Source: Octopus vulgaris
Taxonomy: Eukaryota
Reading direction: 5' to 3'
Length of the DNA stretch: 64,000 bases
Assembly (NCBI GenBank): GCA_951406725.2
Contig: OX597829.1
Span: forward strand, 54,250,001-54,314,000
The notes under the pieces: generated by a model
Told to the model about the DNA's origin: nothing
What the model saw: the letters and a program-made list of their open reading frames with translations, nothing else
Database searches by the model: none
In this document: in pieces, positions 40,091-45,428 of the stretch
Numbering within the stretch: the first letter of the stretch is position 1
Layout of the letters: every line of letters starts with the position of its first letter
Translations under genes and position numbers: made by a program

Positions 40091-40537
40091 AAAATAATAG
40101 TTATCGCCATACTAATATGGCATTCTTATAAAAATAAGAAAAAAAGCTGTCCGCTTATTAGCTCCATGAGGCCATCGCCTTAAGTTAGCTATTTGATACA
40201 CAAACTGTATCCATATAACCTTCGAACAAGGGAGGTCAGTCGCTCCACACTACTTGACCGGCAGCTACAGACGCGTTTCGAGGTATTGCCCCTTTTCAAT
40301 GCAGCGTAGCCAGCCAGTAGGTGTCGCTTCCGACAATCTCTGTTCGATGGTTTTATTTACCTAGTTTCGGTGGAATACATCCACTTGTTTTCAATAATAG
40401 AAATATTAAAATAACTAAGTCTCTCTAAAAGAGAACAGCGGCAGCGTTCCCGGAAAATAATAGTTATCGCCATACTAATATGGCATTCTTATAAAAATAA
40501 GAAAAAAGCTGTCCGCTTATTAGCTCCATGAGGCCAT
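40091..40537 (-). mobile_element. Retrozyme-like ~363 nt monomer with ~85 nt terminal redundancy
   Basis: 40091-40175 is repeated at 40454-40537; contains the hammerhead at 40264-40305. Confidence 0.75.
40264..40305 (-). ncRNA. Type I hammerhead motif, U3-A8 variant
   Basis: GCUGCA-UUGAAAA-GGGG-caaua-CCUC-GAAAC-gc-GUC-UGUAGC. Confidence 0.8.
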
Positions 40538-41243
40538 ATAAACACCAAAGTTGACATGGCCCGCAGAATGTGTTCCTGGATTCTCAGAACTTTCCAGTCG
40601 AGAGATATCCACACCATTATCCTTCTCTTCTCCACTTTTGCCCGACCCCACCTTGAATACTGTTGTCCACTGTGGTCTCCCCACACAATACAAGGTATCA
40701 TAAAAGTTGAAGCACCTCAAAGGGCAATCACAAAAAAGATAGATGGCATGACAGGCCTCGACTATTGGGGTCGACTAGAAAAGCTAAAACTCTATTCTCT
40801 CCAACGTCGTCGTGAGCGCTACATCATCTGCATGATGTGGAAAATATTCCATCAGCATTGCCCAAATGATGTTGGCATCACCTTTAAGGTACATCCAAGG
40901 CTTGGGCCCCGTGCCATCCGCCCAAAACAAAAATCGCACTCTCATCTCATAACAACAATACGGCACAATTATTTCACCTCAATTGGCCCCGCTCTCTTTA
41001 ACATTACACCAAAACACATTAAAACAGAAACTGACCCTATAGGGTTCAAGAAGTCTTTGGACAGATTCCTTCAAGAAATCCCGGATAAACCCCCTACACC
41101 CGGATATGTCTCTGTAAACAATAACTCTCTACTTGAGTGGGCCATAGTGCCCAAATTCTGACTTGAAAGACTTCACCAGGTGGTGCTATTAAGTTAGACA
41201 TGGCCTGGGCCAATAATGGCCGAAACCTATCAAAGTATCAAAG
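40537..41243 (+). mobile_element. CR1/L2-group LINE 3' portion, copy 2 (near-identical to 38799-39504)
   Basis: Only ~3 differences seen by eye; reading frame intact. Confidence 0.9.
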
Positions 41244-41830
41244 TATATATATATATATATATATATATGCATATATATATATATATATCTATATATATAT
41301 ATATATGCATATATATATATATATATGCATATATATATATATATATATATATATATATATATATATATATATATATATATATATGCATATATATATATAT
41401 ATATATATCATCATCATCATCATCATCATTTAGCGTCCGTTTTCGTGTCAGCGGCTTTTACGTGTCACCGGCACGGGGGCCAGCCGAGGCTGGCAACAAA
41501 CACGAATGGATGGTACTTTTACGTGTCACCAACACGGGGCCAGACAGAGCTGGCAAACGGCCATGAACGGACGGTGCTTTTACGTGTCACCGGCACAGGG
41601 GCCAGCCGAGGCTGGCAACGAACACAAGCGGATGGTGCTTTTACGTGCCACCGACACGGGGCCAGACAGAGCTGGCAAACGGCCATGAACGGACGGTGCT
41701 TTTACGTGACACTGGCACAGGGGCCAGCTGAGGCTGGCAACGAACACGAACGGATGGTGCTTTTACGTGCCACTGACACGGGGGCCAGACAGAGCTATAT
41801 ATATCAATATATATATATATATATATATAT

Positions 41831-42170
41831 ATAATAGAAATATTAAAATTACTAAGTCTCTATAAAAGAGATTACGGCAGCTTTTACTGGAAATTAATTG
41901 TTATCGCCATATTAATATGGCATTCTTATAGATATAAGAATAATCGCTGCCGCTGGTCAGCTCCATGAGGCCACCGCCTTAAGATAGCTATTGATACACG
42001 ATCTGTATCCATTATAACCTTCGAACAAGGGAGGTCAGCCGCTTCACACTGCCAGTCCGACAGCTACAGACACGTTTCGGGGTATTGCCCCTTGTCAATG
42101 TAGCACAGTCAGACCCCGCAGGTGTCGCCACTGACGTCTCTGTTCGAAGGTTTCTATTTACCTAGTTTCA
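41831..42170 (-). mobile_element. Second, diverged and circularly permuted copy of the 363 nt unit
   Basis: Begins at the equivalent of 40394, crosses the monomer junction and ends at the equivalent of 40369. Confidence 0.75.
42063..42104 (-). ncRNA. Type I hammerhead motif, U3-A8 variant
   Basis: GCUACA-UUGACAA-GGGG-caaua-CCCC-GAAAC-gu-GUC-UGUAGC. Confidence 0.85.
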
Positions 42171-42840
42171 GTAATGATAATATATATATGCATATATATA
42201 TATATATATATATATATATATATATATATATATATATATATATATATATATATATATATGCATATATATATATATATATATATATATATATATATATATA
42301 TATATATATATATATATATATATATATATATATATATATATATATATATATCATATATATATATATATATATATATATATATATATATATATATATGCAT
42401 ATATATATATATGCATATATATATATATATATGCATATATATATATATATATATATATATATATATATATATATATATATATATATATATATATATATAT
42501 ATATATATATATATATATATATATATATATATATATATTATTTGTTTTATTTCGGAATGGTCATATTGCCAGTTTAGCCAATCAAAACACACGCACTATA
42601 TATTTGGTGTTATTTTGCATATATATATATATATATATATATATATATATATATATATATATATATATATATATATATATATATATATATATATGCATAT
42701 ATATATATATGCATATATATATATATGCATATATATATATATGCATATATATATATATATATATATATATATATATGCATATATATATATATGCATATAT
42801 ATATATGCATATATATATATATGCATATATATATATATAT

Positions 42841-44072
42841 AAAATTAATTAAGGGTAGAAATTGATATTTATCAATTAAGACCAGTGGTCTAGCCTATTA
42901 AAAAAGAATCCGAAGATTAAAATATTTATATATACCAATTAAGGACTGAACACGAAAAGTGGACAGTCAACATGCTAGATATAGACGTCAAATCGTCATT
43001 CTCCACAAAAGATTATGTTCTCAGATCAAACTCAACACAAAACCATAGCAATAAACAAGTGAAAAATATACGAAATAAAATAATTACCCATGTACTAACT
43101 TAGTTTCAGCTGTTATTTTCCGCAAGGAAAACTGCAGCCATCATCAGCATGGTCCGTTATAAATGTAATTTGCTGGACTAAATGCAAACACGATACCAAG
43201 ACAAGCGTGCATGGAGTTCAGCCTATTACATTTGAATATATCTTTCAAATGCCTTTACTTTGGCGTTGAAACCCGAGAAAACTAGCCTGCAGCTAATAAT
43301 TAGCAGCAGTTAATTTATCGGTTAGAGAACATATTTATTTATATAAAATTAATTAAGGGTAGAAATTGATATTTATCAATTAAGACCAGTGGTCTAGCAT
43401 ATATATATATATATATGCATATATATATATATATGCATATATATATATATATATGCATATATATATATATATATATGCATATATATATATATATATATAT
43501 ATATATATATATATATATATATATATATATATATATATATATATATATATATATATATATATATATATATGTGCATATATATATATATATGCATATATAT
43601 ATATGCTAGACCACTGGTCTTAATTGATAAATATCAATTTCTACCCTTAATTAATTTTATATAAATAAATATGTTCTCTAACCGATAAATTAACTGCTGC
43701 TAATTATTAGCTGCAGGCTAGTTTTCTCGGGTTTCAACGCGCCAAAGTAAAGGCATTTGAAAGATATATTCAAATGTAATAGGCTGAACTCCATGCACGC
43801 GATATTTCGGTATCGTGTTTGCATTTAGTCCAGCAAATTACATTTATAACGGACCATGCTGATGATGGCTGCAGTTTTCCTTGCGGAAAATAACAGCTGA
43901 AACTAAGTTAGTACATGGGTAATTATTTTATTTCGTATATTTTTCACTTGTTTATTGCTATGGTTTTGTGTTGAGTTTGATCTGAGAACATAATCTTTTG
44001 TGGAGAATGACGATTTGACGTCTATATCTAGCATGTTGACTGTCCACTTTTCGTGTTCAGTCCTTAATTGGT
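42841..44072. mobile_element. 504 nt hammerhead-bearing monomer with 54 nt terminal redundancy plus an inverted copy across a (TA)n array
   Basis: 42841-42894 equals 43345-43398; 43605-44072 is the reverse complement of ~42932-43398. Confidence 0.85.
43854..43918 (+). ncRNA. Type I hammerhead motif, canonical core (mirror copy at 43088-43152, -)
   Basis: CCAUG-CUGAUGA-u-GGCUG-cag-UUUUCC-uugc-GGAAAA-uaa-CAGCU-GAAAC-UAA-g-UUA-GUA-CAUGG. Confidence 0.9.
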
Positions 44073-44400
44073 ATATATATATATATATATATATATATAT
44101 ATATATATATATATATATATATATATATATATATATATATATATATATATATATATATATATATATATATATATATATATATATATATATATATATATAT
44201 ATATATATATATATATATATATATATATATATATATATATATATATATATATATATATATATATATATATATATATATATATATATATATATATATATAT
44301 ATATATATATATATATATATATATATATATATATATATATATATATATATATATATATATATATATATATATATATATATATATATATATATATATATAT
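44072..44400. repeat. Pure (TA)n array, one of many (TA)n/(TATATG)n arrays between 29.6-49.1 kb and 61.3-62.7 kb
   Basis: Directly visible; source of all IYIY-type ORFs. Confidence 0.95.
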
Positions 44401-44845
44401 GCATATATATATATATATATATATTAATTAATAAGGGTGAGAGAATTAGATACTAATTTAATAGTATATTTATTCAACAATTGTCCCAAAATAATCTGTA
44501 TTTTTGTTATTTTTTATTTGCCCTGTCCGTGTGAGCTAACAGTCGTACTGACTTTCATGGGAAACATGTATTTTCGTGGTTGAAACCTTTTGGATTAACT
44601 GGTGCTAGAGTGAGCAATATAGTGACCACTCTCTTATATTTATATTATATATATATATATATATATGCATATATATATATATATATATATATATATATAT
44701 ATATATATATATATATATATAATATATATATATATATATATATATATATATATATATATATATATATTATATATATATATTATATATATATATATATATA
44801 TATATATATATATATATATATATATATATATATATGCATATATAT

Positions 44846-45086
44846 CATCATCATCATCATCGTTTAACGTCCGCTTTCCGCGCTAGCACGGGTTGGACGG
44901 TTTGACCGGGTCTGGGAAGCCAGGGGCCGCTCCAGGCTCCAGTCTGAATCTGGCAGAGTTTCTACGGCTGGATGCCCTTCCTAACGCCAACCACTCCGTG
45001 AGTGGATTGGGTGCTTTTTACGTGCCACCTGCACAGGGGCCGGAGGGTCCGGCATCGTCACGATCGGTTCGAGCATTTTAACGTGT
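44846..45086 (-). mobile_element. RTE 3' tail identical to 37857-38097
   Basis: The same 62 aa spurious ORF is listed at 37861 (-) and 44893 (+). Confidence 0.85.
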
Positions 45087-45390
45087 CGGAAGGTTGGGGT
45101 AAGGAGGAACGATGGCAGGAAGGGTTGGTGTAGGTTCCTAAGAAATAAAAACGTAGGATATTACGAGGCGGGAGGGTACTAAAAGGGGATGGTCGGATTG
45201 AGGCAGTGTCAGGAGGAAGCGTATATATATATATATATATGCATATATATATATATATATATATATATATATGCATATATATATTTAAAAAAGATGTGGA
45301 ACACGAGTTGTGATATATAAAAAAAGGAAATGAAGAAAATGCTGACAAAATAATTTAAGTAAGGGAGAGTGTATTTAATTAGGTGAAAGT

Positions 45391-45428
45391 TCTTTACCGG
45401 TTGCGCATTTGTTATGCTTATCAAAAGA
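45391..45428 (-). ncRNA. Minimal hammerhead motif of the Penelope 3' region (U3-A8, A13C)
   Basis: UCUU-UUGAUAA-GCAU-aacaa-AUGC-GCAAC-cg-GUA-AAGA. Confidence 0.65.

Follow-up and report, generated by a model that had tools for sequence, protein, structure and literature searches.

A stretch of 64,000 nucleotides of the Octopus vulgaris genome (assembly GCA_951406725.2, contig OX597829.1, positions 54,250,001 to 54,314,000; hereafter the window, numbered from its first letter) carries three type I hammerhead ribozyme motifs in which U3-A8 replaces the core pair C3-G8. Two of them belong to units A and B, two copies of a 362-363-nt non-coding, retrozyme-like repeat. The third is located near the 3' end of a neighbouring Penelope-like element (PLE). 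In both families, U3-A8 is the norm and not decay. The core is no good sign of kinship between the two repeats, and most likely each of them acquired this recurrent swap on its own. We consider it probable that the units represent a high-copy, protein-free retrozyme pasted into TA repeats by a PLE enzyme, and that the Penelope's own motif, which has C13 in its core, is weak or dead and dispensable.

Hammerhead motifs of the window

The three motifs, at 40264-40305, 42063-42104 and 45391-45428, are real type I hammerhead motifs and all lie on the minus strand. Their 7-mer cores are UUGAAAA (40299-40293), UUGACAA (42098-42092) and UUGAUAA (45424-45418). An earlier note on this DNA, made from its letters, had described cores changed at positions 3 and 8 together, and all three are present; its loci were right, but its positions are the low ends of the whole motifs and not of the 7-mers. 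Stems I and II are present in each motif, stem III is palindromic (ACGCGU, ACGUGU and ACCGGU, respectively), and U16.1-H17 is found with C17 at 40270 and 42069 and A17 at 45395. In the unit motifs, the core reads C3 U4 G5 A6 N7 G8 A9 / G12 A13 A14, except for U3-A8 in place of C3-G8. Their stems I and II are predicted with pair probabilities of 0.76-1.0, giving, with the palindromic stem III, a three-stem type I form open at stem I. Because units A and B are 84.6% identical (over 285 nt), their cores stand for a single event, so that U3-A8 has at most two independent origins in the window, not three.

A type I hammerhead scan of the window with positions 3, 7 and 8 left free returned exactly these three motifs. 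A wider scan, with the same positions free, an optional base after A9 and one extra core mismatch permitted, returned seven, every one with a Watson-Crick 3-8 pair; the remaining four have C3-G8 cores with one other core change apiece. Since the same wider scan gave a single match in 30 resampled 60-kb strands, the motifs of the window are far above chance. The expectation that standard searches would miss them holds for Rfam: at the gathering score there is no hit in the whole window, and at E up to 10 no hammerhead family occurs among the 139 matches in 40000-46500, which fall mostly on microsatellites.

The unit family

Unit A (40091..40537, minus strand) is made up of 1.23 head-to-tail copies of the repeat. 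Its 85-nt terminal repeat (40091-40175 and 40454-40537) is 98.8% identical, its period shortens from 363 to 362 nt at a single indel in an A run, and its RNA-sense 3' end abuts a (TA)n array (39505..40090). The unit A hammerhead is of the extended type I form (40256..40315, minus strand), with a stem I of 6 bp, an internal loop UAC/U and 7 further bp, a stem II of 4 bp with the loop CAAUA, a GAAA box and a predicted cut after C17. Unit B (41834..42172, minus strand, 339 nt) is a circularly permuted, diverged copy of the same family, flanked by (TA)n arrays at 41796-41833 and 42180-42841. Its extended type I hammerhead (42055..42114, minus strand) has the internal loop UGU/U and, again, a predicted cut after C17. 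Both internal loops presumably are similar to those through which the Schistosoma ribozyme makes its tertiary contacts. The 3' end of unit B is the unit position equivalent to 40394, where other copies also meet (TA)n; loose ends at 40394 are found in 17 contigs of sequencing run X1 and in 14 contigs of run X4.

The 362-nt monomer is predicted to fold with a z score of -6.4 (0 of 100 shuffles as good), the hammerhead sitting at the tip of a long rod. No open reading frame of at least 80 aa is found within the units on the minus strand. Between units A and B, RNAalifold counts 2 two-sided and 6 one-sided changes among 79 pairs, and in distal stem I two pairs are altered on both sides.

Thus, in size and form (362-363 nt, non-coding, highly self-paired, with a type I hammerhead) the unit falls within the range of about 170-400 nt of retrozymes. 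It is close to the metazoan non-LTR retrozymes as defined by Cervera and De la Pena (2020; PMC7229834), which measure 350-390 bp in mussel. Like the unit, these are described as non-coding, self-paired units of 170-400 nt, present in high copy with a head-to-tail junction and a type I hammerhead made of a 6-bp stem I, a 4-bp stem II and a palindromic stem III. Unlike them, the unit has a U3-A8 core, for which our literature search found no case in retrozymes, and a single hammerhead occurs at each of its two loci, which comprise 1.23 and 0.93 units, the head-to-tail junction being present. Li et al. (2026) recognize a retrozyme by a tandem array in which two or more complete hammerheads follow one another, an arrangement found at neither locus.

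The variation of the family was surveyed in contigs of three DNA-type runs (1198-2578 contigs per run, variants listed at 2% or more); such family statistics drop rare variants and give no copy number. In all three runs, no variant is listed at 40299 (U3) or 40294 (A8), and none of the 31 variant rows touches a core position, hence U3-A8 is the family norm. That the method detects private changes follows from 40281, a base private to the unit A copy, which was flagged at about 100%; the family pair at this place is G-C. Mapped onto the predicted fold, 16 of the 31 variants are unpaired, 9 keep their pair and 6 break it, against 14.2 breaks expected (P about 0.001). In the hammerhead rod, all six paired variants preserve the pair. 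With the two-sided changes between copies, these counts support a unit fold that is kept under divergence. Position 7, which had been said to vary freely, does differ between the three motifs of the window, but no variant at 2% or more is listed there within either family.

By eye, no A-to-G bias in the RNA sense was seen in the variant table. No RNA-type run is found among the 20 runs (10 studies, 7 organism codes) listed as carrying the unit. One contig of run X12, whose RNA status is a guess, jumps back by 362 nt. This joint was rejected as proof of a circle, as a tandem DNA copy yields an identical contig.

The Penelope-like element and its motif

The PLE (45285..47975, minus strand), flanked by (TA)n arrays at 45222-45284 and 47976-48049, is a broken copy. 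It comprises a 5'-truncated reverse transcriptase (RT; 46793..47975; PF00078, E 7.7e-7), a C-X4-C-X2-C linker finger with a GIY-YIG endonuclease (46301..46777; PF01541, E 3.9e-7) and a 3' non-coding region, or pseudo-LTR (45285..46300), that ends at (TA)n, all on the minus strand. The order RT, CX2-5CxxC linker, GIY-YIG is that of endonuclease-bearing PLEs, broken in this copy. Described beforehand as coding, the copy is in fact not coding-competent: besides the 5' truncation, about 35 codons are missing and two stops stand between RT and endonuclease. The named proteins among the best RT matches are molluscan, with 57-58% to Octopus bimaculoides proteins. The RT, linker finger and endonuclease liken it to the Neptune/Nematis-type PLEs of Craig et al. 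(2021; PMC8557442), by domain layout and not by clade placement; unlike these, the copy is truncated and broken.

The Penelope motif (45391..45428, minus strand) is a minimal type I hammerhead located about 870 nt behind the endonuclease stop and 106 nt from the 3' end of the element. It has 4 bp in stem I and 4 bp in stem II, and A17. This location and the palindromic stem III are those of minimal PLE hammerheads, but the G12 A13 A14 box is altered, GCAA standing in place of GAAA at 45404-45401, with C13 at 45403. It resembles the Cercyon PLE hammerheads described by Cervera and De la Pena (2014; PMC4209133), which are minimal type I motifs with U3-A8, a short stem I and a palindromic 15.2-16.2 region in the terminal repeat. 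Unlike those, it carries C13 and A17 as well, its stem II measures 4 bp, and no extra base separates 9 from 10.1. The unit motif, being of the extended form, also differs from the Cercyon minimal form.

Contigs covering 45285-45955 were surveyed in three DNA-type runs (436-1064 contigs per run, 2% listing threshold). No variant is listed at 45424 (U3), 45419 (A8), 45403 (C13) or 45395 (A17) in any of the three, while the private bases 45602 and 45886 were flagged by the same survey; C13 is therefore the family state. The A13C change, taken before as a possible sign of a dead copy, is indeed present, but it is fixed in the family according to the contigs and is not a defect of this copy. U3-A8 is likewise not independent decay in either family. 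In run X1, 923 of the 1064 Penelope contigs are at 95% or more. Loose ends at 45292 continue into TA in nine X4 contigs. Run X12 gave 0 contigs on the Penelope stretch, possibly by a filter effect, and was not used.

A 2-nt insertion behind 45392, in the 3' strand of stem I, accounts for 43%, 28% and 20% of the depth in the three surveyed runs and, judging by eye, would draw U3 and U4 into stem I. The hammerhead fold is predicted at +2.9 kcal/mol vs. -5.5 kcal/mol for the best fold, with stem I pair probabilities of 0.06-0.07. The Penelope family thus multiplied while carrying U3-A8 together with C13 and A17, and most likely its hammerhead is weak or dead and dispensable. Changing A13 in a hammerhead causes a strong loss of activity. 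Our literature search found no earlier report of C13 in hammerheads, a weak basis for calling it unreported; the variant section of Perreault et al. (2011; PMC3088659) gives C6, U13a, A6a and U15.1-A16.1 but no C13.

At 45398-45484, some contigs keep the hammerhead-bearing Penelope end and differ upstream (a 434-nt X1 contig; an X4 loose end at 45483). These are possibly non-autonomous derivatives with the C13 motif.

Kinship of the repeats and their spread

According to the earlier note, the shared core is rare and may link the retrozyme to this Penelope lineage. Neither statement fits the data: U3-A8 is not a lineage marker, because it is published, not rare, scattered on the RT tree and unaccompanied by shared sequence. 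Covariation of C3-G8 to U3-A8 is reported in several natural ribozymes and called compensatory by Perreault et al. (2011). For the Cercyon PLEs of Schistosoma mansoni, Cervera and De la Pena (2014) describe U3-A8 hammerheads, with about 1,300 hits. The 125 loci of related PLEs that were scanned, likely animal DNA within metagenomes and bins, hold 33 sense-strand hammerheads, 23 with C3-G8 and 10 with U3-A8; after merging of repeats, we count 24 distinct ones, 17 with C3-G8 and 7 with U3-A8. None of the 33 has a mismatched 3-8 pair or C13, though these positions were left free. Ten antisense matches were set aside (eight G3-U8/G13 and two G3-C8, from two repeated sequences); the control, two resamplings of one strand with a composition that differs, gave 10 matches.

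The RT tree has 23 rows, namely the window RT and 22 of the 125 loci, chosen because a hammerhead could be assigned to an RT there and cleared of duplicates. Two U3-A8 motifs for which no RT could be assigned are absent from it, and in six assignments, C3-G8 or distant, the motif is more than 2 kb from the RT end. The 3-8 state changes five times on this tree, at least three of them forced by well-supported branches, and 197 of 500 shuffles are as low: U3-A8 is scattered. Finally, local alignment of the unit with the Penelope 3' region scores 20-22, with shuffle means of 21-22, hence no likeness.

Insertion next to TA repeats is a better link between unit and PLE than the core. Unit A, unit B and the Penelope all three end at (TA)n, a target that does not single out the present Penelope family. 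A microsatellite bias has been proposed for Neptune (Craig et al., 2021). The unit copies end at (TA)n away from the predicted cut site, and copies that are permuted or longer than a unit would fit a circular or multimeric template. In the mechanism that we favour as probable, read-through unit transcripts would be cut at the hammerhead, probably as dimers via the palindromic stem III, and the cut RNA would be closed into circles. A PLE reverse transcriptase-endonuclease acting in trans would then prime at nicked (TA)n; copying round the circle or along a multimer could yield 0.93- and 1.23-unit copies whose ends are unlike the cut site. A link between retrozymes and Penelope elements has been proposed before, metazoan retrozymes being reported as derived from PLE pseudo-LTRs, with 1 of 9 Xenopus dimers active (bioRxiv 10.64898/2026.07.22.740005).

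Several points weigh against this reading. Neither unit locus holds two hammerheads, and the unit ribozyme may be slow, because pairwise mutagenesis of a type III hammerhead is reported to have restored activity with the G3-C8 swap alone, with low activity in the other double mutants of this region (PMC9901934). The 31 variant sites are not independent, some being counted in both repeats and the fold being derived from the unit A copy, and absent variation is weak evidence of selection in young families. The unit was compared with a single PLE copy, over 45285-46310, and it may really descend from a different PLE family of this genome. The window RT sits in a supported clade in which 4 of 7 rows are U3-A8, so that U3-A8 could be ancestral in that sub-lineage. 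As for the Penelope motif, a poor monomer fold does not prove it dead, because minimal motifs are reported to have low activity in vitro anyway (Cervera and De la Pena, 2014).

The retrozyme might instead derive from this very Penelope lineage, or be mobilised specifically by it, and have inherited U3-A8. Both are U3-A8 on the same strand within 3.1 kb, both end in (TA)n, the 4 of 7 rows of the RT clade point the same way, and Xenopus retrozymes are reported to be like PLE pseudo-LTRs (bioRxiv 10.64898/2026.07.22.740005). However, the likeness of unit and Penelope is no greater than that of shuffles, their stems I, II and III and position 17 all differ, stem I is extended in one and minimal in the other, and U3-A8 is common and unclustered among PLE relatives; adjacency is to be expected because the region is packed with unrelated TA-inserted repeats. 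We therefore regard such descent as unlikely. Slightly less credence is given to an active Penelope ribozyme in which two core contacts are exchanged at once, C3-G8 having become U3-A8, and A13-C17, the contact by which the nucleophile is normally positioned, having become C13-A17. In its favour, the motif's young, high-copy family is fixed for both C13 and A17, and neither stem II nor the palindrome is damaged. The cut-site residue is described as forming a trans pair with the base that follows the general base, through the Hoogsteen edge of the latter, and many base combinations are said to allow such a pair (PMC6961537); the mapping to positions 17 and 13 is our own. The motif is nevertheless a single example, its stem I is poorly predicted and disturbed in 20-43% of the depth, and among the 24 distinct PLE hammerheads A17 occurs with an ordinary A13 in three and C13 in none, a looser scan giving 0 sense matches. 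If true, this would be the first natural covariation of the 13-17 contact found in our literature search; consensus-dead cores could cut, and genome searches would miss whole ribozyme families.

It is also conceivable, though quite improbable, that no hammerhead here needs to cut, both families spreading as structured RNAs recognised by PLE enzymes while their cores drift. The fixed C13 of the Penelope family would fit, as would a U6 common to two copies of another repeat (50664 and 59830), the reported success of Naiad PLEs without canonical hammerheads (PMC8557442) and the 8 of 9 Xenopus retrozyme dimers reported uncut in vitro (bioRxiv 10.64898/2026.07.22.740005). Drift agrees poorly with units that are 15% apart and keep every core letter but N7, with no core variant listed, and with the Watson-Crick 3-8 pair and A13 of 33 out of 33 sense PLE hammerheads, in a scan that left these positions free. 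Under the favoured reading, of a retrozyme served by a PLE enzyme, a family whose extended hammerhead is fixed for U3-A8 escapes both Rfam and CUGANGA descriptors, and retrozyme counts are therefore likely too low. As regards the C13 Penelope, either it has a dead motif and does without cleavage, or the hammerhead core accepts a swap that our literature search did not find. A successful PLE family fixed for C13 thus offers a test of whether PLEs need hammerhead cleavage to spread.

Around unit A, a LINE 3'-end duplicate (40535..41245, plus strand) joins the 5' end of the unit at a 3-nt CAT overlap. It is 99.6% identical to 38797-39506 (3 differences in about 711 nt), the end of an unrelated LINE, and with the (TA)n that follows it forms a long direct repeat around unit A. 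This looks like a very long target duplication or a template jump at insertion; an assembly effect or a later duplication may also account for it.

Other repeats were noticed beside the main subjects. An element of about 504 nt (~42841-43398 and 43606-44071, by eye) is terminally redundant over about 55 nt, and part of it recurs in inverted orientation on the far side of a (TA)n array; the hammerhead scans of the window found none in it. Among the PLE relatives, locus L055 (reverse strand, about 1014 from its end) has a CCGAUGA (C4) minimal hammerhead beside the element. Loci L079-L125 are prokaryotic genome bins with Penelope-like RT relatives, some with hammerheads, at least the close ones likely being host-animal contamination. 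Two copies of another repeat (50664-50699 and 59830-59867, plus strand) carry a minimal hammerhead, both with U6 (CUGUAGA and CUGUUGA) and A17, and may represent a further family in which a non-consensus core is fixed. At 5651-5685 (minus strand) and ~52944-53153, two copies of a related repeat end in C3-core minimal hammerheads with differing private changes (C4; A8 and A12), which are ordinary decay, in contrast to the fixed changes. Lastly, an inverted pair (19168-19480 and 19353-19672, 84%) of a repeat with a CUGAUGA minimal hammerhead, A12 in one arm and GAAA in the other, resembles the inverted arrangement of PLE ends.

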